Source of the DNA: Sulfurihydrogenibium sp. | Lineage (GTDB): Bacteria > Aquificota > Aquificia > Aquificales > Hydrogenothermaceae | Direction: 5' to 3' | Assembly (NCBI GenBank): GCA_037442825.1 | Contig: JBBIPN010000001.1 | Location: forward strand, 2,325-66,324 | Length of the DNA: 64,000 nt | Part shown: one piece after another, positions 10,896 to 25,423 of the stretch | How positions within the stretch are numbered: the stretch's first letter is position 1 | Layout: the number at the start of each line of letters is the position of its first letter | Made by a program: the position numbers and the translations under genes | The notes under the pieces: model-generated | What the model saw: the letters and a program-made list of their open reading frames with translations, nothing else | The model's database searches: none | What the model was told of the DNA's origin: nothing

Positions 10896-11332
10896 CTATT
10901 TTTTAAATTTTCTCAAATCATGAACTACCATTGGTATTAATCTATATCCTTCTTCTTGAAAAACTGCAAATCCTACCACTCCAGCAGGTACAACCTCTAC
11001 AAATGGTTGTAATTTTAATTGCTCCAATCCTAAAGCTTTCATTATATTCCTACATACTTAGTTTAACTCCATATGTTTTATTAAAAAATTCTAATCTATC
11101 TACAATATCTTTATACTTATCATAGTTATCTTTTGGAAAAATTAAAACTTCTGGTCCATGAGATACTATAGCTATCTTATGTTCTTCTTACTGTTTCTGC
11201 ATCTTCTGGTTTCTCTAATGTCCAATCAAAAACTGCTTTAATTTTGTCTGGTAAGTCTACTTTAAGTTATGCTGAATAAGAATAAGAAGATATAAAAATT
11301 AACAAGATTAAAAGTTTAAATTTTTTGATCAT
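10896..11332 (-). pseudogene. Second exported DsrE-like gene, inactivated
   Basis: ATG 11332 after a strong RBS; TAA at codon 22 (11267-11269); fragments KAVFDW, KIAIVSHGPEVLIF and FVEVVPAGVVGFAVFQEEGYRLIP lie in different frames. Confidence 0.8.
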
Positions 11333-11359: not shown

Positions 11360-11379
11360 CCCAGGCATAAAAGCCTGGG
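11360..11379 (-). terminator. Intrinsic terminator after the porin gene
   Basis: CCCAGGC-ataaaa-GCCTGGG stem followed by a U7 tract on the minus strand. Confidence 0.8.
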
Positions 11380-11387
11380 ATATTCAT

Positions 11388-12671
11388 TTAGAATATTAAC
11401 TGTATTCCTACTCCTATATAATCTCCTGCTTTTCCATTTTGGTTTGTACCTGTATACAATGAATATGCTGATCCATTTTAATCAACGTAATGTAAATTGA
11501 GTTTTAATTTATTCTGTTTTATATACCAATTTAGCCCTACATCTGTAGTCTTAAATTTACCGTTTCCGTTTAAGCTTGAATTACTTCCTTTCCACTCACT
11601 GTATGTTATCGCTGGCTCTAAAATTGTTTTGTTTGGTAGTGTAAAGTTGTATCCTGCCCTTACATGCCATACTTTGTCTTTGTATGATAAATTTGATCTG
11701 TCATAATCTCTTTTTAATTCGTCATACTCTGTATTAAATGTAAAATCTTTGTAATTTGCAAGTATATCAAATCCTAATAGTTGATTGTTTTTAAATGAAT
11801 ATTTTGGAACATTACTCGTAAGATCAGAAGCTGTCCATACACCGCCTTTCACAGCTAATGGATAGCTGTTAGTATCTTGTGCTCTTCCTTGGTAGGAGTA
11901 GTTTACTGCTAATGTTATACCGTTTCTTTTTCCAAAGTAATTTACTTTATAACCCATTCCATATTTTTTCATCTCTGGATCACCAAGAGATAAAGCTATC
12001 CTTGCTGTGTATAGTAAGCTGTCCCCTCCTGTCCCTCCATTAAATTTGCCAGTGTTGAATATTCCAAAGTTGTAGTTTATCCCCCATTTGGATTTCTCAT
12101 CATTGTATAATCCTCCTATGTTTATACCTGTATCACGACCTGGCCCTATTCCTACTATATGTTGTCTTAGATAGAAGTTTGTTAAAGCTTTCTCAAATGA
12201 TGTTACTTCAAATCCTGCTGTTATGCTCTCTCTTCCTACTTGTGGTCTAAAGTATCCTACAGTAATGTTGGCCCAGTTTTTGTGTAAAGCGTATGTAAAG
12301 AATGCATCCCATAGATAAAATTCTTTATTATTACTATTAACACCTATTAATCCATTGTTTGATTTTGTTAAAGCAGTATGTGAGTCTAATCCTACGTTGT
12401 CATAGGCAAACCAAACTCTCCAAGATAGATTTTCTGAAATCTTTCCTTGAAATCCTACCCTAGATCTTCTTAAGAAGAAATCCACCCTGTTGTCGTATTT
12501 TGTATTGTCCTCTACTCTATCTATTGTGTAAACGCCCCAGAGTTGATTCATAAAGAAAATTTCCATTTCTCTTCCTTCACCAAAATAAAACTTTGGTGCC
12601 GCATTTGATGGTGTTGCAAGAAGTCCTGCAACAAAAAGGCTTGTTCCGATACCAAGTAAAACTTTTTTCAT
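11388..12671 (-). pseudogene. Outer-membrane porin (OprO/OprP-like anion porin) with an in-frame TAA 29 codons before the natural end
   Basis: Signal peptide; DFFLRRSRVGFQG, YLWDAF and FNTEY beta-barrel motifs; after the TAA at 11478-11480 the frame continues NGSAYSLYTGTNQNGKAGDYIGVGIQLIF*. Confidence 0.75.
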
Positions 12672-12694
12672 GTTTTTAACCTCCTATAAAATAT

Positions 12695-13327
12695 TTATTT
12701 AACAACCTCATCTATAATTTCTTTTATTTCTAAATCTAATTCTTTAAGTACTTTAATTGCTTCCACATCAAGATTTCCCATATATCTAATGAAAGTACTT
12801 GGTTTATAAGTTCCAACTACAATCTTTCCATCTTTTTCATAAATGTAAACTTTTAGTGGAAACTGTGAAGCAAGTTGTGGGTTGTTTTTTAGTATTACAG
12901 AACATTTTGATAGTTTACATACAAGGTAGATATTCATATTTTTCCAAAAGTTTTTTTCTCCTTGCTCTTCTAATCCTTTAGAAACGTGAATTATATGTAC
13001 TATCTTAAAGTTTTTATTTTCAAGTAGTGTTTGTATTGTTAGTTCTACTTCTTCTATGGATTTTGTTGTGGTTTTTTCATATATATCTGACATTTCTTCG
13101 TCTTCTGTATCTGTAGCTACTGCATTTGCAAGTGTAGATAAGAAAGATTTTTTCTCTGTGTTACTTGTAGTATTTTCTTTATTTGGCTTACTTAAACCTA
13201 TTTTTTCCTGTGGCTTTTCATCATAACCAGTTTCTAAATAATCTCCTGTTTCAAAGGATACATCTTTTATAGCACCACCACAAGAGAGTACAAAAGCAGA
13301 AAATGTTATTAAAAGTATCTTTCTCAT
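12695..13327 (-). CDS. Lipoprotein with C-terminal DUF302 domain
   Basis: Lipobox VLSC; acidic low-complexity linker; YLVCK ... PLKVYIYEKDGKIVVGTYKPS DUF302 pattern; ATGA overlap with soxB. Confidence 0.75.
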   Translation of the reverse strand: MRKILLITFSAFVLSCGGAIKDVSFETGDYLETGYDEKPQEKIGLSKPNKENTTSNTEKKSFLSTLANAVATDTEDEEMSDIYEKTTTKSIEEVELTIQTLLENKNFKIVHIIHVSKGLEEQGEKNFWKNMNIYLVCKLSKCSVILKNNPQLASQFPLKVYIYEKDGKIVVGTYKPSTFIRYMGNLDVEAIKVLKELDLEIKEIIDEVVK

Positions 13328-15057
13328 AAACATTCTCCTCTATCTGTAGGACATCCACAAACATAATCTAACACTCTTACATTTGATTTAAGTGGCGGAT
13401 TTACCTCTTTTACTCTTTTTATATAGTCTATGGTTATATCGTATACAGGTCTAAACTTCTTAGCATTTTTACCTGCTTTGTATAGATTTCCTCCCCATGA
13501 AGCTACCACGTAAGTTCTGTTCGTATCAAGGTCTTTACCATTTACCTTTATATTTGATAATCTTTGACCTGTCGGTGCTGATATTTTTATATCGTAATCT
13601 AATCCTAATGTTCTGCTCATATCTCCACCTTGTTGATAAAGTGGATTAGAGTTAAATGCATTATCTGCAACATCTTCAAGTATATTTTTAATCTGTGCTC
13701 CAGTAAGTTCAAATCTATAAACATTCGGGTATGTAATAGCTGTCATACTATAAACATCATCTACTGTTATATTATCTCCTGGTAATAACGTCGTTCCCCA
13801 TCTATAACCAGGGTTAAATACTATCTCACAGTCTGTTTCATCTTTTATTGCATCCATAATAACTCTATCAAATGTTGAGTAGAAAGTATCTCTCTTGTAC
13901 AAGATTTTTTGGGTTTTTCCAATTACTTCTGAAAGCTGTTTCTCATAAGGTTCGTAAAGTTTGTTTACTAAAGATTCTACTTCTTTATCTGGTTTTATAA
14001 AGTTTGAAGCAACTGGATAAAGTTTGTATGCAAAGTTTGTTATCTTTTTATTTTTTACTTCAAGATCAAGTCTTCCTAAATATTTTCCATGACTACCTGC
14101 TATAACTATAATTGTGTTATTTATCACAATTGGTTTTGGCGCTGGATCATGTGTATGTCCAGAAAGTATAACATCTATACCATTTACCATTTTTGCCAAT
14201 GCTTGGTCAACAGTAAATCCATCGTGAGAAAGTAAAACAACCAAATCAGCTCCTTTATTTCTTACTTCATCAACAAACTTTTGAAGTCTTTCTGGTTGTA
14301 TACCAAATGTCCATCCTTCTGTAAAATCTCTTGGGTTTGCTATAGGTGTGTAAGGAAAAGAGTTTCCAATAACTGCAACATTTACACCGCCAACATCTCT
14401 TATTGTGTAAGGTTTAAATATAAGTTCTCCCCACATATCATCAGCTATATTTTGAGATATAAACTCTGCTTTTAAATGTTTGTTTATAAGTTCTAAAACC
14501 TTTTCTTTTCCATATGTAAACTCCCAGTGACCTACCATAACGTCTATTCCAATAGCATTTTGAACTTCAACTATAGCTTGACCTTTTGTAAACAATCCTA
14601 TAGCTGTTCCTTGCCATGTATCTCCAGAATCCATAAATAAAACTTTATCACTACCTCTTTCAGCTTTTATCTGTTTTACTAAAGAAGATATATAAGCTAC
14701 ACCTCCCATTTTCCCATACTTCTTTGCAAGCTCTTCAAAGGCTATGTGTGTATCAAAATAAGCTCTAATCGTACTTGGTTTTATATTGTAGTATTTCATA
14801 AAAGCTTTACCACACAAAAACCCTGGAGTACCAATAAGTTCTTTCGCTGATATTAATGTTGAAGGTTCTCTCCAGTAAAGTGGTTTTAAATGAGCATGTA
14901 AATCGCATATATGGAGTAATGTCACATTTCCAACTGGCTTAAAATCAAAAAGTTTTTCTGGTTTAATATCGTTTAATTTTGCAAAAACGTTATCTGTAGT
15001 TAAAGATAATCCTGCTATAGCTGCAAGATGAAAAAGTTCTCTTCTTGATATATTCAT
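13324..15057 (-). CDS. soxB: Thiosulfohydrolase SoxB
   Basis: Tat motif SRRELF; CDLHAHL, DSGDTWQG, GHWEFT, LLSHDG and GHTHD motifs of the 5'-nucleotidase fold. Confidence 0.97.
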   Translation of the reverse strand: MNISRRELFHLAAIAGLSLTTDNVFAKLNDIKPEKLFDFKPVGNVTLLHICDLHAHLKPLYWREPSTLISAKELIGTPGFLCGKAFMKYYNIKPSTIRAYFDTHIAFEELAKKYGKMGGVAYISSLVKQIKAERGSDKVLFMDSGDTWQGTAIGLFTKGQAIVEVQNAIGIDVMVGHWEFTYGKEKVLELINKHLKAEFISQNIADDMWGELIFKPYTIRDVGGVNVAVIGNSFPYTPIANPRDFTEGWTFGIQPERLQKFVDEVRNKGADLVVLLSHDGFTVDQALAKMVNGIDVILSGHTHDPAPKPIVINNTIIVIAGSHGKYLGRLDLEVKNKKITNFAYKLYPVASNFIKPDKEVESLVNKLYEPYEKQLSEVIGKTQKILYKRDTFYSTFDRVIMDAIKDETDCEIVFNPGYRWGTTLLPGDNITVDDVYSMTAITYPNVYRFELTGAQIKNILEDVADNAFNSNPLYQQGGDMSRTLGLDYDIKISAPTGQRLSNIKVNGKDLDTNRTYVVASWGGNLYKAGKNAKKFRPVYDITIDYIKRVKEVNPPLKSNVRVLDYVCGCPTDRGECL

Positions 15058-15067
15058 TTTTGCCTCC

Positions 15068-15871
15068 TTATCTGACTAAACCCGGTGCTTCAATAGTTGC
15101 CCCATTTGATAAAGAAGTTACATATAACTCTAAGGCTACCATCTCTTTAGAACCTAATGGTAATACTTTCGTACTTGCTTGACTCATACATTGTTGAAAT
15201 CTTTGTTCTATTGTAAATACTTCACTTTTTGTCATTCTATAACCTGGCCAATGGGCTGCTGCTGTAGTACCTTTTAGACCATTATACTCATGACCTAAAG
15301 GATTGAGTTTCTGCATTCTTAAAACCATTCCAGCTGCGTTTTCATGACAGACAGCACAAGAAAGGTTTCTTTTTCCTCTTTTCAATTCAAAAACATATCT
15401 ACCATAGTTATAGTACTCTTTAACAACTGGGTTGGAAGAGGTATCAACATTTATTTTTTCACCGGAAGCTATATACTTCAAGTAAGTCACCAATGCTGTA
15501 TTCTCTTTGCTTTTTAAATTAAATGGTTTATCAACACCTTGATACAACTTTTGACACATCTGAATTCTCTGTTGAAGAGAGATAACAGCATTTAGTTTTT
15601 CATTGTATTTTGGATATGTTCCTACAGCTTTTTTAAGTTTATCTTCACTATGACAAGATACACATGATTTATTTGAGCTTCCCATAGGTTTATTAAAAAG
15701 CGCTCCACCAACTTCCTGTGCAAAAACTTCACCTGGATTGATACCTGATTGGTATAATTTTAAATCTTCTTCTGATATAGCTTGTCCAGCTTCTTCTGAT
15801 ATTGCTTTTATAGTAAATGATGTTATTAATACTAAAGTACCAAAAAGCAAGACTTTACCCTTTAATTTCAT
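15068..15871 (-). CDS. soxA: Sulfur oxidation c-type cytochrome SoxA (dihaem type)
   Basis: Two CxxCH motifs (CVSCH, CAVCH); HWPGYR and RFQQC axial-Cys region; ATG at 15871 follows GGAGGT. Confidence 0.95.
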   Translation of the reverse strand: MKLKGKVLLFGTLVLITSFTIKAISEEAGQAISEEDLKLYQSGINPGEVFAQEVGGALFNKPMGSSNKSCVSCHSEDKLKKAVGTYPKYNEKLNAVISLQQRIQMCQKLYQGVDKPFNLKSKENTALVTYLKYIASGEKINVDTSSNPVVKEYYNYGRYVFELKRGKRNLSCAVCHENAAGMVLRMQKLNPLGHEYNGLKGTTAAAHWPGYRMTKSEVFTIEQRFQQCMSQASTKVLPLGSKEMVALELYVTSLSNGATIEAPGLVR

Positions 15872-15902
15872 GGCAATGTTTACCTCCGTTTGTTTTTTCA
15901 AG

Positions 15903-15933: not shown

Positions 15934-16260
15934 CTAAAACTGAATGTTTATTATTTTCTCTGTAATGTCTCCTTGATTATCTTTCCAAACAATTTTAATT
16001 GGTTCTGCTTTTGTCAACTTAACATTAAAAGAAATAAACGGGTTTGCACTTACTGAACCAGAAAGTTTCATGGTAGTTATTTTTTCATTACCATAGTAAA
16101 CTTCTACATCTGTTATATGGTAAGCAGCTATATATTTTCCAGATTCTTTATCCTTTACAAGTTCAGTATCCATAGGATGCATAATAACGCTGTCAATCCT
16201 AACTATATCATCTTTCTTGTATTCTCTTGGATTAATTTTAACCATAGCTTGTTTTAGCAT
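15934..16260 (-). CDS. soxZ: Sulfur carrier subunit SoxZ
   Basis: IMHPMDT, HITDVEV, SVSANPFISF and WKDNQGD motifs; directly after soxY. Confidence 0.93.
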   Translation of the reverse strand: MLKQAMVKINPREYKKDDIVRIDSVIMHPMDTELVKDKESGKYIAAYHITDVEVYYGNEKITTMKLSGSVSANPFISFNVKLTKAEPIKIVWKDNQGDITEKIINIQF

Positions 16261-16303: not shown

Positions 16304-16771
16304 TTAACCACAACCACCTATTGTTACTTTAACTGGTTTTTGAGCTTTTATAAATGTTCCGTCGTTTAGTTCTGCAACTGCTATAACGTTCATAGTCTCA
16401 GCTAATCTTATTCTTGTTGAGATGTAAGCTTTCCCATTTTGTGGAGTGAGATACACACTCATCGTGTGGGCATTATGGTTTTTATCTGCTAGTATATGGA
16501 TTGCTCTTACACTTTCAACTGGGAGCTCAATTTCAACAGTAACTGGAACAACTGCACCATTTTCTGCTATTTCTGGAGCTATAATTTTTACTTTATCTGA
16601 ATCACTTACAGATTTCCCGCCAGTGATTTCTTTTAAAACTTCCTCAAATGGTTTTTTCGGTGGTGGGTTGTCTACTAGTTGAACTGCTAAAGATTCATAA
16701 ATTAAAGAGCTTCCAAATGTTAAACTACCTACTGTTAAAGCAGCCATTTTTAAAAGTTTCCTTCTGTTCAT
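16304..16771 (-). CDS. soxY: Sulfur carrier protein SoxY
   Basis: Tat motif NRRKLL; PEIAENGAVVPV; C-terminal VKVTIGGCG swinging arm. Confidence 0.98.
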   Translation of the reverse strand: MNRRKLLKMAALTVGSLTFGSSLIYESLAVQLVDNPPPKKPFEEVLKEITGGKSVSDSDKVKIIAPEIAENGAVVPVTVEIELPVESVRAIHILADKNHNAHTMSVYLTPQNGKAYISTRIRLAETMNVIAVAELNDGTFIKAQKPVKVTIGGCG

Positions 16772-16781
16772 AAAAAACCTC

Positions 16782-17219
16782 CTAATTATTTTTCATAAAA
16801 TATTCGTTCATATCCATATTTTTATAGTTATCTGATGCGAAATAATCTAAAATTTTAAAGAAATCTTTCTCTTCCCAAGCACCAAATATAGATTTTATTT
16901 TTTTACCATCAGTTTCCAAAAAGTAAAACATAGGTGTTCCTATAAATCCATACTTTTTCCTAAACTCTATACCTTCTTTACTACATTTCCTTAATTTAAC
17001 TGGAATAAAGTCTTTATTTATCAAATCTTCCACTCTTTTACTTTCAAATACATTAAACTCCATAATATCACAGTAATGACAGGAAGGAGAATAAATGTAA
17101 ACAAGAACCAACTTATTTTCTTTCTTTGCCAAATCAAAAGCTTTCTCATAAGAAATCCAGTTTATATCAGCTTTTGCAATCCATATAAACAAAAGTAGAG
17201 GTAAAAATATTTTTCCCAT
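16782..17219 (-). CDS. Periplasmic thioredoxin-family protein (SoxW-like)
   Basis: Signal peptide; CHYC active site; GTPMFYF; located within the sox operon. Confidence 0.8.
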   Translation of the reverse strand: MGKIFLPLLLFIWIAKADINWISYEKAFDLAKKENKLVLVYIYSPSCHYCDIMEFNVFESKRVEDLINKDFIPVKLRKCSKEGIEFRKKYGFIGTPMFYFLETDGKKIKSIFGAWEEKDFFKILDYFASDNYKNMDMNEYFMKNN

Positions 17220-17223
17220 CTTT

Positions 17224-17739
17224 TTATTCCTGTGTTAGCAGATATGCTGTTAATTGGCAAACTTCTTCGTATGTTAACTGTCCTGTTGTTAGCTGAACTG
17301 TCATAATATTATAGTAAGGCACTTTTTCTAAATCTTTTGGTAATAAAACTCTTCCATCAGCTATCTTTTGATATAACCAATCAATGGTTTTTGGGTTTCC
17401 TCTATAATCTGGAGCTTTAAATAAACCATTTCTATATCCAGATAAGGATGGCCCTATATTACCACAACCTTTAGCATCTTTAACACAGTGACATGCTACA
17501 CAGTTACCTTTCTTTACTGTGTGAAAAACTTTAATACCTTTTTCTGCAAGTTTTTTTAGTGATTCTTTATCTGTTAGGTTACACTCTGGAGGAACTGCAT
17601 ATGTTCGTGACTTATCAGGTATATCTTTTAACATTGGTGTTTTTCCATCTGGTGATTCAATTCCTGCTTCATTTAAACTTAAAGCAAAAGTTAAACCTAC
17701 AGTTGAAACTACTGCCAAAAATACCTTTCTAAACTTCAT
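17224..17739 (-). CDS. soxX: Sulfur oxidation c-type cytochrome SoxX
   Basis: KGNCVACH haem motif, GNIGPSL, IMTVQ axial Met region. Confidence 0.93.
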   Translation of the reverse strand: MKFRKVFLAVVSTVGLTFALSLNEAGIESPDGKTPMLKDIPDKSRTYAVPPECNLTDKESLKKLAEKGIKVFHTVKKGNCVACHCVKDAKGCGNIGPSLSGYRNGLFKAPDYRGNPKTIDWLYQKIADGRVLLPKDLEKVPYYNIMTVQLTTGQLTYEEVCQLTAYLLTQE

Positions 17740-17775
17740 AATAACCTCCCACTATTTTTATCATCTTTATCAGTA

Positions 17776-17792
17776 AGCAAATTTTATGCCAA
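17776..17792 (-). promoter_or_regulatory. sigma54 (-24/-12) promoter of the sox operon
   Basis: Minus strand TTGGCATAAAATTTGCT: GG and GC separated by exactly 10 nt, 37 nt upstream of the soxX ATG. Confidence 0.85.
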
Positions 17793-17834
17793 TTTTTAGG
17801 AGGCTATTTATAGTACTTCTCAAATAATAAACTA

Positions 17835-17869
17835 TCCAAAATGGAACAGTGTTGTCCAAAATGGAACAG
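17835..17869 (-). promoter_or_regulatory. Tandem enhancer (UAS) sites for a sigma54 activator
   Basis: Exact 15-bp direct repeat TCCAAAATGGAACAG at 17835 and 17855 (20-bp period); minus strand reads TGT-tccattttgg-ACA and TGT-tccattttgg-ATA. Confidence 0.7.
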
Positions 17870-17870
17870 C

Positions 17871-19145
17871 TTAACCAAACATCTCTCTCCATAAACCTTT
17901 TGCCCACTCTTTATATCTTTTTACAGATGATTCTTTTCTTACATTATCTTCTCTATGAATAGGTGTAACTGTCTTAGTTACTCTGTCCAACTTAAATGCT
18001 GTTTCTGACATAATAGCTTCTTTATCACTTACCATTGAATAACATATAACCATTAAAAGCTCTTCCTGTCTTGTCTTTTTACCTGTTATTCTTTCATTTA
18101 TAATACTTGCAACTACTTTACCTTGCATATTAGCACCAAAACCGGATTTTGGTAAAAATGTTCTTGCAGAATCACCGATAACAAATACATTTTTAACTTC
18201 TGTTTCAAATGTAAACGTATCTACTTCTATCCATTTCTGTCTATTTTTTAATAAACCTATTTTATAAAGTAAATTTGAAGCTTTCATAGGTGGAATTATA
18301 TTAGCTATATCAAATTTAAAATCTCCATTTGTCGTTTTTACTAATTTTTTAGTTGGATCTATCTCTTTAATAGATGTTCCTGTTATATAATCTGCATAAC
18401 CTTTATACAACTCATAGTAAGCTTTCATAAAACCTTCAGAGTTTACTATAGGTCTTTCATTTTCATCAATAAAATATAAATGTGCTTTCAGATTTCTTGA
18501 TTTTAGATAGTTTAGTAACAATGCAGCCCTTTCATAAGGAGCTGGAGGACATCTGTAAGGATAAGAAGGAACAGTTACTACAATATCTCCACCACTAAAT
18601 TCATTAATTATTTTTTTTAAAAATAGATGTTCACTACCTGGTTTAAATGCAGGCGGATAATTTATAAAAATTTCAGCCTTTGTTTCATCAACATCATAAT
18701 CTATACCTGGTGATAAAACTAAAAAGTCATAAGATACTTTGTATTTATTAGTATAAACAACCTTTTTATCAAAATCTATATTGTCCACTTCATCTTTCAA
18801 TACTTGAATGTTATGTTTTACAGTTAGGTTATTATAAGGAAAACAAAGATTAGAAAATTCCATTATATTTACTAAATATAGATTACTCATAGGACAAGAC
18901 ACAAAAAAGTCATTTTTTTCTATCAAAATAATATCTATATCTTTATTATATTTCCTTAAAGCTACTGCTGTAGTTACACCACCATAACCACCACCAACTA
19001 TAACAACCTTAGCTTTTTTTGGAGAAAGTTTACTTTCTGTAGTTTCTGATTTTACTTCATTAAACGAAAGTAAAGTTGAAGCAGAAAGTAATGCAGATGC
19101 TGTTAAAAAATCCCTCCTACTAACATTTAATTTGTTCTTTGACAT
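17871..19145 (-). CDS. Flavocytochrome c sulfide dehydrogenase flavoprotein paralogue (FccB/SoxF family)
   Basis: Tat motif SRRDFL; VVIVGGGYGG; CPMSN; YRCPPAPYER and ICYS catalytic cysteines. Confidence 0.9.
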   Translation of the reverse strand: MSKNKLNVSRRDFLTASALLSASTLLSFNEVKSETTESKLSPKKAKVVIVGGGYGGVTTAVALRKYNKDIDIILIEKNDFFVSCPMSNLYLVNIMEFSNLCFPYNNLTVKHNIQVLKDEVDNIDFDKKVVYTNKYKVSYDFLVLSPGIDYDVDETKAEIFINYPPAFKPGSEHLFLKKIINEFSGGDIVVTVPSYPYRCPPAPYERAALLLNYLKSRNLKAHLYFIDENERPIVNSEGFMKAYYELYKGYADYITGTSIKEIDPTKKLVKTTNGDFKFDIANIIPPMKASNLLYKIGLLKNRQKWIEVDTFTFETEVKNVFVIGDSARTFLPKSGFGANMQGKVVASIINERITGKKTRQEELLMVICYSMVSDKEAIMSETAFKLDRVTKTVTPIHREDNVRKESSVKRYKEWAKGLWREMFG

Positions 19146-19836
19146 ATTTACTTACCTCCATAGCAACAGATTTTTCTACCATTTCTGTAGCTTTCTCAAA
19201 ATCTCCATACAACTCTATTAAATCTGATTTATATATATCTAAAAACTCTTCAAATTGGCTAGGTCCTACAACAGCTGTTGCATAAATATTTCCATTTTCT
19301 TCTACAAGTTCAACATAGGCTAAAGGTAGTTCTGCTGGACCTTCCATTACTTGACCACCTTTTTTTACATCAAAAACAGACATATGTGCGCAACATTGTA
19401 TAACACCGCTTTTCCCTGTTGTAGCAGATTTTTCCGTAGGTGGATAGTAATTGAAAAGCGAAAAATCTTTATTTGGATAATTCCACTGATGAGGACATAT
19501 TGCACTATAAGCAACGATACTTTTATCTTTTCCTATACCTCCATTAAACTGATAATCTTTACCACTATCTAATTTTATAGTCATTGGTTCAACTTTATCA
19601 CCTAAATTTATAATATAACAAGGTGTAGATTTAAACGGGTAATGGAAAAGTAATACAGTGTATGGTAATAGATCAGAAGTTTTTAAAGGTTCACCATTTT
19701 CTTTTACCAACAATGCTTTTTTATAAGTTTTATAAAGTTCTTTTTCTGCAGCAATTAATTTAGTAAAAAGAGTAGAATCTATCATCATTCCAGCAGCTAT
19801 AGCTGAACATGTCTTAAACAATTTCCTCCTATTCAT
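19120..19836 (-). CDS. Tat-exported Rieske [2Fe-2S] protein
   Basis: NRRKLF Tat motif; AYSAICPHQ (CxH) and QCCAHMSVFD (CxxH) boxes; GPA-x2-PL. Confidence 0.85.
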   Translation of the reverse strand: MNRRKLFKTCSAIAAGMMIDSTLFTKLIAAEKELYKTYKKALLVKENGEPLKTSDLLPYTVLLFHYPFKSTPCYIINLGDKVEPMTIKLDSGKDYQFNGGIGKDKSIVAYSAICPHQWNYPNKDFSLFNYYPPTEKSATTGKSGVIQCCAHMSVFDVKKGGQVMEGPAELPLAYVELVEENGNIYATAVVGPSQFEEFLDIYKSDLIELYGDFEKATEMVEKSVAMEVSKYVKEQIKC

Positions 19837-19863
19837 CTTAGAACCTCCTATATATATAAAAAA

Positions 19864-19883
19864 AGGGGGCTAAAAAGCCCCCT
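19864..19883 (-). terminator. Intrinsic terminator after fccB
   Basis: AGGGGGC-taaaaa-GCCCCCT followed by a U-tract on the minus strand. Confidence 0.8.
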
Positions 19884-19916
19884 CTCATTAAACTATGTAT
19901 TATAGAATTATTTATA

Positions 19917-21224
19917 TTATCCTCTTCCCCATGTATCTGCTACTATATTATCATACCAAACTTGAGCATAAATCGCCTCTTTTTCTCTGAACTTTTCATC
20001 TGCACCTGCTGGACTAACACCACCTGCACCTTTAACAGCTTCTATTCCTTTTTCTGAAACATTATAAACAGCTGCTACAGAAATGCCATAGGTTGGAGAT
20101 ACTAAACTATAACAAGTGTTTACGACTGTTGTATTTTCTGGTTCTTTTCCGTTTATTTGAGATACAATAGCTGCTGCGGCCACTTTACCATGGCTATTAG
20201 CTGAGAATCCTGATTTAGGCATTATAGTATTAGAAGAGTCACCAATTACAAATACATCTTTAGCAACTTTTGACTCAAATGTTTTTGGATTTATATCTGC
20301 CCAACCTTTTTCATTAGCAAGTTTTGAAGATGAAATTATATCTGCTGCTTTTTGATGTGGTATAAAGTTTATAACATCACCTTTAATTTTTTCACCAGAA
20401 GATGTAACTACAACTTTTTCTTTAGGATCTATTTTTATAACTTTACCACCAACATCCGATGAAACCCATTCAACCATATCTCCATATAGAGCACTCCAGC
20501 CTTCCATAAAAAGCTTTTGTTTAGGAAAGTTATTTTTAGCATCTAAAAGTATTATTTTTGACTTTGGTTTATTATTTTTAAGATACCAAGCCACTAAAGA
20601 AGCTCTTTCGTATGGCCCAGGTGGACATCTGTATGGCATAGGTGGAATAACCATTATAAATGTACCACCATCTGGCATAGCTTCTAACTGTTTTCTAAGT
20701 AACAATGTTTGTGGTCCAGCTTTCCATGCATGTGGTATTTCTTCAGCCATTTGAGGTGTAGCACCTTCTACTGCTTCATATTTGAAGCTTATACCAGGTG
20801 ATAGTACAAGTTTATCATACTTAACTTTTTTACCATCAGACAGTATTACATGTTTAGCAGTTGTGTCGATTTCTTGAACATGACCTTTTATAAAGTTGAC
20901 TCCGTACTTACCTTTTAGAATGGAATAATCTACTTCTAAATCTTCAATTTTCTTAAATCCACCGATAACTGTGTTACTAAATGGACATGTATAGTACTTG
21001 TCAGAACCTTCAATGATAGTAACAGCAATGTCTTTATCGAATATTTTTATATACTTAGCAACTGTTGAACCACCAAATCCACCACCTACTACTACAACAT
21101 GAGCTTTCCCTTTTATTTCATATTCAGAAACTTTTTGAGACATAGAAAAAGCTTTATCTACTCCTGCTACTGTTGCTACACCTACTAAACCCGTTAATTT
21201 CAATAAATCTCTTCTTGTAATCAT
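19917..21224 (-). CDS. fccB: Flavocytochrome c sulfide dehydrogenase flavoprotein subunit
   Basis: Tat motif TRRDLL; GGGFGG; TCPFSN; YRCPPGPYER; PKSGFSANSHGK; NTCYS. Confidence 0.93.
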   Translation of the reverse strand: MITRRDLLKLTGLVGVATVAGVDKAFSMSQKVSEYEIKGKAHVVVVGGGFGGSTVAKYIKIFDKDIAVTIIEGSDKYYTCPFSNTVIGGFKKIEDLEVDYSILKGKYGVNFIKGHVQEIDTTAKHVILSDGKKVKYDKLVLSPGISFKYEAVEGATPQMAEEIPHAWKAGPQTLLLRKQLEAMPDGGTFIMVIPPMPYRCPPGPYERASLVAWYLKNNKPKSKIILLDAKNNFPKQKLFMEGWSALYGDMVEWVSSDVGGKVIKIDPKEKVVVTSSGEKIKGDVINFIPHQKAADIISSSKLANEKGWADINPKTFESKVAKDVFVIGDSSNTIMPKSGFSANSHGKVAAAAIVSQINGKEPENTTVVNTCYSLVSPTYGISVAAVYNVSEKGIEAVKGAGGVSPAGADEKFREKEAIYAQVWYDNIVADTWGRG

Positions 21225-21236
21225 CTTATCTCCTCC

Positions 21237-21530
21237 TTATTTTAATGTTGATAGATACTCTGCTACTTTTTTGATTTCTTCATCTGTATAACCTTTTGCA
21301 AGACGGTTCATTACGGTACCTTTAAGTTTGCCTTCCTTATACTGAAGCAATGTTTTTTCAATAACTGCTGCTGGTTTTCCTGCAATAGAATACCCTTTCT
21401 TATTTGTAGTTTTACCTTCTGGGCCATGACAACCAAAACAAGTAGCAGCAATAACTTTTACAGATTCTACAGCGTTAGCTGTAAATGTAAAACACAAGGC
21501 CAAGACTCCTGCGGTTAAAAACCTCTTCAT
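21237..21530 (-). CDS. fccA: Monohaem c-type cytochrome subunit of flavocytochrome c
   Basis: Signal peptide; AATCFGCHG; GTVMNRLAKGY; directly upstream of fccB; ATG at 21530 follows GGAGG. Confidence 0.85.
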   Translation of the reverse strand: MKRFLTAGVLALCFTFTANAVESVKVIAATCFGCHGPEGKTTNKKGYSIAGKPAAVIEKTLLQYKEGKLKGTVMNRLAKGYTDEEIKKVAEYLSTLK

Positions 21531-21564
21531 TTTTAAACCTCCAAAAATGTTTTTTTCCATGGAA

Positions 21565-21593
21565 AATATAAATCATCTTTAAGTTATTGTCAA
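21565..21593 (-). promoter_or_regulatory. sigma70-type promoter of fccAB
   Basis: TTGACA-N17-TATATT on the minus strand. Confidence 0.75.
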
Positions 21594-21599
21594 ATACAT

Positions 21600-21661
21600 A
21601 TTTAAATTAGTATATTTACATAATTTAAATTAGTATATTTATATATTTAAATTAGTATATT
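21600..21661. repeat. Three direct repeats ATTTAAATTAGTATATT
   Basis: Exact 17-mers at 21600, 21623 and 21645, immediately upstream of the fccA -35 box. Confidence 0.85.
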
Positions 21662-21748
21662 AATATTAACCTTTTTTTATTTTTATTAGAATATACATGT
21701 AAAAATTATTAATTATATTAATATGATTATTAATATATAATATTGTTC

Positions 21749-23068
21749 TTATAATAAACCAAAGTTCTTCATCTTGGTTCTTAACTGCTTCCTTGATATA
21801 CCTAATTTTTGAGCTGCCCTTGTTTGATTAAAATTTTCTTCTTCAAGAACTTTTAATATTACTCTTTTTTCTATTTCATAAAGATTTAAATTATCTTTAT
21901 CTAATATAGTATCAACTTTATTTTTAAAACTATTTTTTACTCTATCAGGTAAATGATCTACGTTAATTATCTCTCCCTGACATAAAACTACTGCCCTTTC
22001 TATAACATTTTCAAGCTGTCTAACATTTCCTGGCCAATCGTAATTAACAAGAACATCTAAAGCTTCCTTATCAATATCATAAATATTTTTCCCATTTATT
22101 TTGCTAAATTTACTAATAAATTTTTCAACAAGTAAAGATATATCTTCCTTTCTTTCTCTTAACGGTGGTATTTTTAAGTGTATTACGTTTATTCGATAAA
22201 ATAGATCTTCTCTAAATTCTTTATTTTCAACCATTTCTTCAAGATTTCTATTTGTTGCAGATATAAACCTGCATTTTACTTTCACTAATTCTTTTCCACC
22301 AATTCTAAAAAATTCTTTCTCTTGTAAAACTCTAAGTAATTTAGCTTGCATAAAAAGTGGCATATCTCCTATTTCATCTAAAAACAATGTTCCTTCTTCT
22401 GCAATTTCTATCTTTCCTATCTCCTTATTTAATGCTCCAGTGTATGCTCCTTTTTCATGTCCAAAAAGTTCATTCTCAAATAGGTCAGAAGGTATAGCAG
22501 AGCAGTTGATTGCTATAAAAGGCTTATCTTTTCTTTTTGAACGTTTATGGATAGCTTTAGCTACAAGTTCTTTTCCTGTCCCACTTTCTCCTTCTATAAG
22601 TATTGAAGATTCACTTTTACTAACAATATCAATTTCTTTAAAAAGTTCTCTCATCTTTTTACTTTTTCCTATTATTCCTTCAAATTCAGATTCTTCAAAT
22701 TTTTTTTCTTGTTTTTCTTTATAAAACTCAATAATCTTAATTAAGTTATCTGTATCTATAGGTTTTGGTATATAGTGATTTGCTCCTTTTTTTACCGCAT
22801 CTACAGCTCCATTTATAGAACCATAAGCTGTAATAATAATAAAAGGTGTATTAATATCAATTTTCCTAAAATATTCTAATATTTCTATCCCTGTCCCATC
22901 TTCTAAAAGAAAATCTGAAAGGATAAGGTTATATTGATTTTTAGATATTAAGTTTAAGCTGTCAGTTTTTGTTTTCGCTATATCAACACTGTATCCAGCT
23001 TGAGTTAAAACTGTTTTAATAACTCTTAATATACTTTCTTCATCATCAATAAGTAGAATCTTAAACAT
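21749..23068 (-). CDS. sigma54-dependent response regulator (NtrC family)
   Basis: Receiver domain (LLIDDE, ILSD, ITAYG); GESGTGKE; GAYTGA; LFLDEIGD; RFISATN; WPGNVRQLEN; Fis-type HTH. Confidence 0.96.
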   Translation of the reverse strand: MFKILLIDDEESILRVIKTVLTQAGYSVDIAKTKTDSLNLISKNQYNLILSDFLLEDGTGIEILEYFRKIDINTPFIIITAYGSINGAVDAVKKGANHYIPKPIDTDNLIKIIEFYKEKQEKKFEESEFEGIIGKSKKMRELFKEIDIVSKSESSILIEGESGTGKELVAKAIHKRSKRKDKPFIAINCSAIPSDLFENELFGHEKGAYTGALNKEIGKIEIAEEGTLFLDEIGDMPLFMQAKLLRVLQEKEFFRIGGKELVKVKCRFISATNRNLEEMVENKEFREDLFYRINVIHLKIPPLRERKEDISLLVEKFISKFSKINGKNIYDIDKEALDVLVNYDWPGNVRQLENVIERAVVLCQGEIINVDHLPDRVKNSFKNKVDTILDKDNLNLYEIEKRVILKVLEEENFNQTRAAQKLGISRKQLRTKMKNFGLL

Positions 23069-24617
23069 TTCTTCTAACCTTTATAGGTAGTTCTATTATA
23101 AATTTAGTGTATTTACGATACTCTGAATTTAAATTTATTGTTCCTCCATTTAAGAAAACGATTTTATAAACCATTGGTAAACCAAGACCTGTACCTTTTG
23201 GTTTTGTAGTAAAAAATGGTTTAAATATCCTTTCTTTATGCTCTTGTTTTATTCCTATCCCATTATCCTCTATAGTTAAAACGATTTTTTGTTTATTATC
23301 TACAAAACTGGTTTTTATTTTTATATATCCATCGTCTATATTTTTTTCTTTTATAGCATCTATAGAATTAAGAACAAGATTTACAATAGCTTGTTTTAGT
23401 AAGTTATCATCTAAAAAAATCAAAGGTAAATTTTCATCTAACTCTAAAATAAGTTTTATATTGTTATCTTCACAATCATAAATTAAAAGTTTAACAGAAT
23501 CTTTTACAACTTCATTTATATCTGTCAGTTTAAAGTTTGGTTCTATAAGTTTAGAGAAATTTAAAAATGATATTGTCATATCATTAAGTCTATTACTTTT
23601 TTCTTTTATAATTTTCCCAAACTCTCTTATTATTTCATCTTTAGAATTATTTTTTATATAGTTTGCTGCATTAGATATAGAATAAAGGGCATTTTTTATT
23701 TCATGTGCTATTTTTGCACTCATCTCCCCCATAGTAGCCATACAACGCAGTGTTTCCCTTTCTTTATAAGCTTCTTCAAGTTTCTTTATATAATCATTTA
23801 ATGATGCAACCATTATATAAAAACTGTAAGTAAGCTTGTCTACCTCATCTCCAGTGTATTTATTAAATACTTCACATTTAGAACACTCTTTAATAGCAAT
23901 TTCTCCTATATTTAAAAGTATGTCAGCTGAATCTTTTGAAGCTAACCAGCAAGTATCTAAAATATTTTTAATACACTCTCTATCATTTTTTGAGATTGGT
24001 TTTATATCTATTATTGTATTTAGATTATTAAAATCTTGAACAAATAAATTTAAAATTTTTTCTTTCAAATTTACAAGAGGTCTTACATTATAAGAAGAAA
24101 TTAAAAATATACCTACAAAGGAAGCAAAAAATATAAATAGTATTACTAAAGATAGGGGATATATAATATTTTCTATATCTTTGGCAAGTTCTTCTTTAAT
24201 AGTATCTTCATCGTAAAAGACAATTATTTTTCCTATAACATCATCACCAACGTCAAGATTAAAATAAAAAGATTTAAAACTTTGTTTGGTAAATCCAGTA
24301 TAAATTTTCCCTATATAAGATATATTTGAACTTCCAATTATTTTCCCCTCTTTGTCTGTTATAAAAACTTCTTTAACAGATTTATTTTTCATAACAAAAT
24401 TGACTAATTCATCTATCTTCTCAAAATTTTTAACAACTATTTTCTCTTTATAGCTTTCTGATAAACTAATAATATTATCTTCTAATGATTCAATTCTATC
24501 ATTTAAAATTTTTCCATAGAAACTATAGACAGTTAAAATCATAGAAGCAAAAAGAATAACTAATATATAAATTGAGATTGATAAAGATGTTTTAATCTTT
24601 ATGGATAAATTTTTCAT
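23061..24617 (-). CDS. Membrane sensor histidine kinase with a Cys-rich insert in HAMP
   Basis: Two TM segments, small periplasmic domain, HAMP, AHEIKN H-box, N-box, EDNGIG, PFFTTK and GTGLGL. Confidence 0.93.
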   Translation of the reverse strand: MKNLSIKIKTSLSISIYILVILFASMILTVYSFYGKILNDRIESLEDNIISLSESYKEKIVVKNFEKIDELVNFVMKNKSVKEVFITDKEGKIIGSSNISYIGKIYTGFTKQSFKSFYFNLDVGDDVIGKIIVFYDEDTIKEELAKDIENIIYPLSLVILFIFFASFVGIFLISSYNVRPLVNLKEKILNLFVQDFNNLNTIIDIKPISKNDRECIKNILDTCWLASKDSADILLNIGEIAIKECSKCEVFNKYTGDEVDKLTYSFYIMVASLNDYIKKLEEAYKERETLRCMATMGEMSAKIAHEIKNALYSISNAANYIKNNSKDEIIREFGKIIKEKSNRLNDMTISFLNFSKLIEPNFKLTDINEVVKDSVKLLIYDCEDNNIKLILELDENLPLIFLDDNLLKQAIVNLVLNSIDAIKEKNIDDGYIKIKTSFVDNKQKIVLTIEDNGIGIKQEHKERIFKPFFTTKPKGTGLGLPMVYKIVFLNGGTINLNSEYRKYTKFIIELPIKVRRNV

Positions 24618-25423
24618 TTTAAAACTGGGAAAAGGTCAAGTATTTTTCTATAGTTTTTTATTATTTCAAACATTTTTGGTTTTGGTTTTTCAAAGCCATC
24701 AATTTCCATACTCTTTAATGTTTCTTTATCTACTGTAAAAAGTGCTTTTTCTATTTGGTTATCTAAATTTTTATCTAAATTTTTATCAACCATTATAATA
24801 TGTCTTGGAAAAGAAGGTGATTTAGCTATAACTCTAAGCTGAGATTGATAAGGTATTAAACTTTCTTCTCTAATACCAGCAACATCTGCAACACCTGCTA
24901 AAAGTGATAAAATAGCACCTTTGTCTGTCCCAGAACTCCATATATTTACTACATCTTCCTGTGTAATACCAGCATTCGTAAGCATGTACAATGGCATAAC
25001 ACAGTTACTCATACAAATTGGACTACCAAGTGTTATTTTCTTTCCTTTCACATCACCTATAGACTTTATATTACTATCCTTTTTTACTACTAAAACACCA
25101 TTTTCAACAGCTTTTCCGTTTATTTTCATAACAGCTACTGCCTCTACGTTAAACTTCCTTTTCAACTCAAAATATACAACTGAGCAACCAACAGCTAAAT
25201 GAGCTTCTTTCTTTTTAAATAACCTATAAACTTCATCTACTTTTTCTACTATAATAACTTCCACTTCTTTATTTAGATTTTTAGATAGATATTTAGATAA
25301 CGCTGAATATCTTTTATATTCTTCAATAGGATTTCCATAAGATAAAACCACAAAGTTTAATCGTTCCTGTGCAAAAGATATACTAAATATACTGAATATA
25401 GCAATAATTATTTTTACAATCAT
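24614..25423 (-). CDS. Periplasmic binding protein, PhnD/phosphonate-binding fold
   Basis: Signal peptide; GVLVVKKDSNIKSIGDVKGK, LLAGVADVAG and KSPSFPRH patterns; ATGA overlap with the kinase; no ABC permease nearby. Confidence 0.85.
   Translation of the reverse strand: MIVKIIIAIFSIFSISFAQERLNFVVLSYGNPIEEYKRYSALSKYLSKNLNKEVEVIIVEKVDEVYRLFKKKEAHLAVGCSVVYFELKRKFNVEAVAVMKINGKAVENGVLVVKKDSNIKSIGDVKGKKITLGSPICMSNCVMPLYMLTNAGITQEDVVNIWSSGTDKGAILSLLAGVADVAGIREESLIPYQSQLRVIAKSPSFPRHIIMVDKNLDKNLDNQIEKALFTVDKETLKSMEIDGFEKPKPKMFEIIKNYRKILDLFPVLK

Follow-up and report, generated by a model that had tools for sequence, protein, structure and literature searches.

What controls the sox operon in Sulfurihydrogenibium, a member of the Hydrogenothermaceae, the family that dominates primary production in sulfidic hot springs and vents? 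The question is raised by a 131-bp spacer on the minus strand, between the gene for an FccB-like flavoprotein (17871-19145) and soxX, in a 64,000-nucleotide stretch of DNA (the window) from a metagenome-assembled genome of 1,353,722 bp (137 contigs, 29% G+C, 99% complete). This spacer carries a -24/-12 box and two 16-bp near-palindromes. A sequence-only reading of the window had described it as a complete sigma-54 control region with a NifA-type pair of upstream activator sequences (UASs), had named the regulator encoded at 21749-23068 as the protein that targets them, and had contrasted the arrangement with the ArsR-type repressor of better-studied sox operons. Our analysis leads us to conclude that positions 17776-17869 are very probably the sigma-54 enhancer-promoter of the sox operon and that the activator encoded at 21749-23068 is what would bind it. 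The result is a precise and testable cis-regulatory map of thiosulfate oxidation in the Hydrogenothermaceae, consisting of a predicted start, two putative sites, a proposed regulator, and an operon extent.

Reading along the minus strand toward soxX, the first base of the distal putative activator site, UAS1 (TGTTCCATTTTGGACA, 17868->17853), lies 2 nt past the stop codon of the flavoprotein gene, and the proximal site, UAS2 (TGTTCCATTTTGGATA, 17848->17833), follows at 20 bp, start to start. The two 16-mers share CTGTTCCATTTTGGA, a 15-mer present twice in the spacer, and in each the geometry is TGT-N10-A(C/T)A and the inner half-sites are TCCA/TGGA; UAS1 is TGT-N10-ACA, while the right half-site of UAS2 is weakened, with ATA in place of ACA. 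The -24/-12 element, TGGCATAAAATTTGCT (17791->17776), has its GG at 17790/17789 and its GC at 17778/17777, an exact GG-N10-GC. Based on the usual distance from the -12 C (17777) to +1, we infer that transcription starts at or beside the G at 17765 (17764..17766), which would give a 5' leader of ~25 nt. The soxX ATG at 17739 stands 36 nt beyond the end of TGGCATAAAATTTGCT, preceded by a Shine-Dalgarno sequence (GGGAGG, 17750-17745) that is conserved in relatives. Counted from the predicted start, UAS1 spans -103 to -88 (center at ~-96) and UAS2 spans -83 to -68 (center at ~-76). The canonical spacing of the box, and the two identical near-palindromic 15-mers placed two helical turns apart and ~70 to 105 nt upstream of the predicted start, are thus as the sequence-only reading had described them. 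A center at -76 is nearer the promoter than in classical enhancers, and inspection of the spacer by eye revealed no obvious IHF site.

Can such an arrangement be a product of chance? In the window, TGGCATAAAATTTGCT is the sole zero-mismatch match to TGGCAY-N5-TTGCW; it is among the 17 best matches genome-wide and is the only one of these with a Shine-Dalgarno-preceded open reading frame of >150 amino acids starting within 40 nt. By our own estimate, an exact 15-mer repeat would arise by chance in a 131-bp spacer of this base composition with a probability of ~1e-4. Seven matches to the repeat with <=3 mismatches occur in the window, versus 2.2 expected, and the two sox copies are the only exact ones. 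The genome-wide motif scan that the earlier reading had proposed for defining the regulon returned only the two sox sites at 0 or 1 mismatch, with no further copy in the whole 1,353,722-bp genome. Scored with a weight matrix built from 30 orthologous sites, UAS1 reaches 22.5 bits and UAS2 17.2 bits, and the sox spacer is, besides one marginal match of 10.2 bits, the only place in this genome where a site of >=10 bits has a relaxed sigma-54 box within 160 bp. Other candidates for regulon membership were rejected: the weight-matrix match in contig C35 lies inside a gene, those in contigs C65 and C39 are likewise intragenic, a weak site pair in contig C20, which led us to the small-RNA candidate described below, lacks a -24/-12 box in this genome, and a match in contig C42 belongs to a different sigma-54 promoter with unrelated repeats.

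The same elements recur upstream of soxX throughout the family. For this region, our alignment comprised nine close relatives, of which all but G014 belong to the same genus, and nine family genomes at a greater distance. The -24/-12 box is present in 17 of these 18 other Hydrogenothermaceae genomes with an intact soxX (8 of 9 close relatives and all 9 distant genomes), and both palindromes are present in 16 of the 18; in one genome (G020), the contig stops short of the sites. In two distant genomes (G019 and G011), the alignment does not show both palindromes, and a motif scan adds the second, weaker site in each. In an alignment of 10 genera, the columns of the spacer that never vary are almost confined to the proximal palindrome, GGCA-N6-TTG, the Shine-Dalgarno sequence, and the start codon, and the sequence between the conserved promoter elements varies freely among relatives; such conservation is far beyond what chance would give. 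TGTyCC-N4-GGrACA is the consensus of the site in the family, and G007, the closest relative, shares its architecture with the genome studied here. The -12 C is replaced in 6 of the 18 relatives (TTGT or TTGA), which is unusual among sigma-54 promoters. The genome also encodes sigma-54 itself: rpoN is an intact open frame of 440 amino acids, with a DNA-binding domain scoring 198.5 bits. Together, rpoN and the family-wide conservation of the box and the two sites back the earlier description of the spacer as a probably complete sigma-54 control region for sox.

Within the family, the two sites are 20 to 23 or 32 to 35 bp apart, a distance of two or three helical turns, and the proximal site lies 56/57, 66 to 69, 77/78, 88, 100 to 103, or 123 bp from the -24 element. 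These distances are helically phased, with a Rayleigh p value of ~1e-4 at a 10.5-bp period and of 0.012 when only unique values are counted. Steps of one helical turn are the behavior expected of an enhancer facing polymerase, not of an RNA hairpin.

Which protein would read this enhancer? The proposed candidate, encoded on the minus strand at 21749-23068, is an NtrC-type enhancer-binding response regulator with REC, AAA+, and Fis-type helix-turn-helix (HTH) domains in Pfam. Its gene overlaps that of a 518-amino-acid histidine kinase (HisKA plus HATPase_c; 23061-24617, minus strand), and the gene for a PhnD-family periplasmic binding protein (24614-25423, minus strand) is the first of this sensor operon; kinase and binding-protein genes are syntenic in relatives. 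Among 25 family genomes, soxX and an ortholog of the activator are both intact in 18 and neither is intact in 6; the activator occurs alone in none, and soxX occurs alone in a single genome, G002 (Fisher's exact p = 4e-5, with losses in five different genera). The activator orthologs are 59 to 88% identical, and the soxX-less genomes retain only paralogs of <=47% identity. G002, the sole genome with soxX and no activator ortholog, is also the sole one without the enhancer and promoter, and it offers a natural test case of sox expression independent of sigma-54. As a side observation, the enhancer and promoter are replaced in this member of the genus (locus L050, G002:C15 557-2301) by a 554-amino-acid IS605/TnpB-like open reading frame, which has a GC-rich structured tail and immediately precedes soxX; housekeeping genes lie there too. 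In G022, soxX and the activator ortholog are pseudogenes on one contig (loci L029/L070, G022:C11 ~306300-313700), with 2 and 11 internal stops, and two palindromes (one of them an exact copy of the 16-mer TGTCCCAAATGGGACA) and a -24/-12 box, TGGCACAGAATTTGC, are still intact; this looks like a recent loss of the whole circuit. An exact copy of the same 16-mer or of its reverse complement is found upstream of soxX in G003, G015, and G022.

Gene order points the same way. The activator gene ends directly at the enhancer in four genomes (G010, G012, G015, and G003), the kinase gene does so in G013, and the regulator genes are syntenic with soxX in 10 of the 13 relatives for which the upstream flank was retrieved. 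The activator gene abuts the enhancer in several genera, which argues that the module travels with soxX and the regulator rather than with the flavoprotein gene. In the protein, the recognition helix NWNQT(K/R).A..LGISRKQLRTKMKN is invariant in the activator orthologs and absent from those paralogous enhancer-binding proteins (EBPs) of this genome that could be aligned. The assignment of the repeats to the 21749-23068 activator is accordingly supported by co-occurrence, by joint loss in at least five lineages, by adjacency, and by the recognition helix, all of which make it the probable reader.

Could a different protein occupy the palindromes of what is otherwise a true sigma-54 promoter, either one of the five paralogous EBPs or a repressor that shares the sites? 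The genome does encode six true EBPs, each scoring >220 bits, and thus five besides the proposed activator, whose gene is not always next to the enhancer (3.9 kb away here and ~78 kb away in G005). However, only the ortholog group of the 21749-23068 protein co-varies with soxX and the enhancer, while paralogs of <=47% identity survive in sox-less genomes; the recognition helix goes with the palindrome from phylum to phylum, and that of the paralogs is different; the other sigma-54 promoter, in contig C42, has unrelated direct repeats of its own; and the published TspR site, discussed below, is the same palindrome. We consider binding by another protein unlikely.

How far does the comparison with NifA carry? 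The sites share with the NifA UAS the outer TGT-N10-ACA (with ATA in UAS2), a position ~70 to 150 bp upstream of a sigma-54 promoter, and a Fis-type HTH reader. They differ from it in that the inner yCC/GGr is also conserved, the targets are sox and not nif genes, and the regulator has a receiver domain and not a GAF domain. The activator scores 368.7 bits against the NifA equivalog model, whose cut-off is 528.85, its N-terminal domain is Response_reg, and it reaches no NCBIfam equivalog cut-off. The label "NifA-type" in the sequence-only reading therefore fits the geometry of the sites but not the type of protein. The sigma-54-contacting loop of the activator (residues ~204 to 209) reads GAYTGA, not the canonical GAFTGA; among its orthologs, the loop is GAYTGA, GSFTGA, GSYTGA, or GAFTGA, the -12 base of their sox promoters is C, T, or A, and we saw no simple correlation between loop variant and -12 base among them.

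We posit a mechanism in four steps for the sox enhancer-promoter. RNA polymerase-sigma-54 would first sit in a closed complex on TGGCAT-N5-TTGCT. Activator dimers would occupy both 16-bp palindromes, at ~-96 and ~-76 and on the same helical face. The adjacent kinase would then phosphorylate the regulator and so drive assembly of the AAA+ ring, in response to a signal, probably a reduced sulfur compound, that the PhnD-like binding protein would report. Finally, the short intervening DNA would be looped so that the ring contacts sigma-54, giving an open complex near 17765. No autoregulatory site was found upstream of the binding-protein/kinase/activator operon in scans of the window and the genome with the weight matrix.

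The transcript made from this promoter would cover soxX, a thioredoxin-like gene, soxYZAB, and probably two more genes. All are on the minus strand: soxX (17224..17739; NCBIfam TIGR04485, 78.8 bits versus a cut-off of 61), an exported thioredoxin-like protein (DUF255/DsbH-like by Pfam; 16782..17219), soxY (16304-16771), soxZ (15934-16260), soxA (15068-15901), and soxB (13324-15057), the last four each above their NCBIfam equivalog cut-offs. Downstream of soxB on the same strand lie genes for a 212-amino-acid protein of no known type and an ExtI-like porin (11478..13333), which are probably co-transcribed with sox. An intrinsic-terminator-like hairpin at 11360..11379 (minus strand) is the likely end of the sigma-54 transcript, and no terminator is predicted in the operon ahead of 11379.

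Might all of this be a decaying or silent relic in the genome at hand? Some features would fit such a reading: the 1.35-Mb genome was assembled from a metagenome and is split into 137 contigs, UAS2 has ATA for ACA, the promoter of a second target, the candidate small RNA described below, is deleted in this genome, and in G022 the module has outlived its genes. On the other hand, the activator, the kinase, the binding protein, rpoN, and every sox gene have unbroken reading frames here; the -24/-12 box matches the consensus perfectly, UAS1 is a strong site, and the architecture in G007 is alike. A relic seems to us very improbable.

Farther upstream on the minus strand lie genes for a small cytochrome c (21237-21560) and an FccB-type flavoprotein (19917-21224), followed by a predicted strong terminator (19886-19861), a Rieske protein (19120-19836), and the second FccB-like flavoprotein, which directly precedes the spacer. 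No terminator is predicted between this second FccB-like gene and soxX (17871-19886 region), so sigma-54-independent read-through may also express sox, and the Rieske/FccB2 pair may be co-transcribed into sox at a basal level. It is extremely unlikely, however, that the repeats act in RNA, as 3'-end hairpins or stabilizers of the flavoprotein transcript, with soxX owing its expression mainly to read-through or a sigma-70 promoter and the -24/-12 match being incidental: UAS1 does lie just past a stop codon, each repeat can fold into a short hairpin, and a weak sigma-70-like match overlaps the repeats, but the module accompanies soxX whether the upstream gene is flavoprotein, activator, or kinase, what is conserved is the sequence (TGT, CC, GG, ACA) and not the pairing (the would-be pair 4/13 is a nonpairing C-A in several genomes), the repeats have neither a T-run nor a predicted terminator, GGCA-N6-TTG is invariant in 10 genera, and the distances are phased with the -24 box, and we rejected the hairpin or terminator reading on account of the nonpairing C/A combinations and the lack of a predicted terminator.

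The cytochrome c/FccB pair has an upstream region of its own. Three direct repeats, ATATACTAATTTAAAT, spaced at ~22 bp, lie on the minus strand at window positions 21561-21700 and immediately precede a near-consensus sigma-70 promoter of this gene pair (TTGACA-N17-TATATT, 21593-21565). The true start of the cytochrome c gene is probably the second ATG (MKRFL...), with GGAGG ahead of it, and the repeats point to a separate regulator for the sulfide dehydrogenase genes.

Is a sigma-54 enhancer-promoter of the kind we propose for sox new? According to the review PMC6335251, which summarizes Li et al. 2017, TspS/TspR activates sox via sigma-54 in Acidithiobacillus caldus, and phosphorylated TspR binds the upstream activator sequence TGTCCCAAATGGGACA ahead of soxXYZA-hyp-soxB. 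That 16-mer, as quoted there, fits the Hydrogenothermaceae consensus TGTyCC-N4-GGrACA, and in both systems an NtrC-type regulator (REC, sigma-54 interaction domain, HTH_8) and a histidine kinase lie beside sox, the comparison being one of site and gene layout. Differences exist as well: the A. caldus system is from the Pseudomonadota and this one from the Aquificota; two phased sites are found here versus the single site quoted in the review; four sulfide-dehydrogenase-type genes separate regulator and enhancer in the genus Sulfurihydrogenibium; and the sensor kinase TspS is reported to have a periplasmic sCache_3_2 domain (PMC12194929), whereas Pfam finds no Cache domain in the kinase here, which is preceded by a separate PhnD-family binding protein. 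Judged from these features, the circuit is TspS/TspR-type in kind, here in the Aquificota, and not a new mechanism. The contrast that the sequence-only reading drew with ArsR-type SoxR is correct but incomplete, since sigma-54 control of sox by TspS/TspR had already been published (PMC6335251); given the published control via TGTCCCAAATGGGACA, the novelty implied by that reading was too high. What is new here is the Aquificota lineage, the tandem phased sites, and the binding-protein-assisted sensor.

Other Sox regulators belong to unrelated families: the ArsR-type SoxR of Paracoccus and Cupriavidus, the CsoR-type TTHA1953 of Thermus, and the OmpR-type SulRS of Sulfurimonas (PMC13122954, PMC10318464, and PMC12936845). 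Like the system proposed here, they are dedicated regulators, encoded next to sox clusters and responsive to reduced sulfur compounds, but they are repressors or sigma-70-type activators, and none has sigma-54 or this palindrome. Our literature search found no work linking Aquificota, sigma-54, and soxX and none on sox regulation in Aquificota, although Aquificales clusters may be included among the "some chemolithotrophic bacteria" named in the title of Li et al. 2017.

The three-part composition of the sensor resembles that of another signaling module. AioX/AioS/AioR, an arsenite-sensing three-component system, combines a PhnD-like periplasmic binding protein with a membrane kinase and a sigma-54 EBP. 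There too, such a three-part sensor drives a neighboring respiratory oxidation operon from a -24/-12 promoter; the target genes and the ligand are different, and the likeness concerns the sensor, not the cis-element. Within the phylum, the NtrC4 protein of Aquifex aeolicus has been reported to bind upstream of lpxC, not sox. The closest solved structures to the activator are A. aeolicus NtrC1/NtrC4 (PDB 4L4U, 3DZD, and 1NY5; E values of 1e-101 to 1e-94 over REC plus AAA+), which share its domain order and its phylum. In the Aquificaceae genomes, no ortholog of the activator was found, the best matches missing the 1e-100 threshold.

Does the enhancer reach beyond the family? A scan of 185,579 species genomes for the paired-site pattern gave at least 120 listed matches, and among these are loci in Nitrospirota, Desulfobulbaceae, Ca. 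Sulfobium, Caldimicrobium, and unclassified metagenome-assembled genomes (MAGs) where a paired palindrome is followed by a sigma-54 box. Where the stretch suffices, these loci (L089, L127, L150, L105, L191, L195, L096, and L173) have an EBP 47 to 51% identical to the activator beside the sites, and the EBP-bearing loci among the matches listed often have kinase and PhnD-like proteins too. Those Nitrospirota and Desulfobulbaceae EBPs that could be aligned carry the same recognition helix, LGISRKQLRTKMKN. At these loci, the sites face sulfur-related genes, namely those for YeeE-type Sulf_transp with TusA, for rhodanese, for DsbD_TM with a DUF255-type thioredoxin, and for TauE/SafE-like proteins. 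Many GC-rich look-alike matches, from Rhodobacteraceae and others, had no EBP or sigma-54 box nearby and were set aside.

An enhancer defined biochemically in an acidophilic proteobacterium recurs almost letter for letter in a deep-branching thermophile and in Nitrospirota and Desulfobulbaceae MAGs. Conserved across phyla in this way, the motif could serve for the prediction of sigma-54 regulons that respond to sulfur in uncultured bacteria. We speculate further, as a possibility to which we would give a little less than an even chance, that TGTyCC-N4-GGrACA and EBPs with the LGISRKQLRTKMKN helix constitute an ancient, cross-phylum sigma-54 regulon for reduced sulfur, with a post-transcriptional small-RNA arm in Sulfurihydrogenibium. 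If so, the regulon would span Aquificota, Nitrospirota, Desulfobacterota, and Acidithiobacillia, and Sox, YeeE/TusA importers, rhodaneses, and TauE-like exporters would be among its targets.

The candidate small RNA itself was noticed upstream of a class-V aminotransferase gene in five relatives (G007, G003, G008, G014, and G004; loci L206, L209, L211, L213, and L214). The module consists of two TGTyCC-N4-GGrACA-like sites, a sigma-54 box such as TTGGCATAAATTTTGT, and then a ~75-nt element; in G004, the sigma-54 box alone is evident. Within the ~75-nt element, ACCUACCUCCUCC is invariant and unpaired, and a terminator hairpin has a stem that varies between genomes and yet pairs in each. A search of Rfam gave no match for this candidate. 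In its makeup, the element looks like an activator-dependent (sigma-54) small RNA, of which ACCUACCUCCUCC may be the anti-Shine-Dalgarno seed. In the genome studied here (C20:7204-7360; locus L205 1290-1510), a ~56-bp deletion took the -24/-12 box and the RNA body remains, which leaves the sox operon as the only complete target in this genome.

One further promoter deserves mention. In contig C42 (~10990-11060; locus L203), TTGGCACAAAAATTGAAT stands before a gene for an exported protein, with two direct repeats, TGATAAATTTTTGACCAT, ahead of it. The former is likely another sigma-54 promoter, and the latter presumably serve another of the six EBPs as an enhancer of a different type. The -12 element of this promoter is TTGA rather than TTGC, as in several sox promoters of the family.
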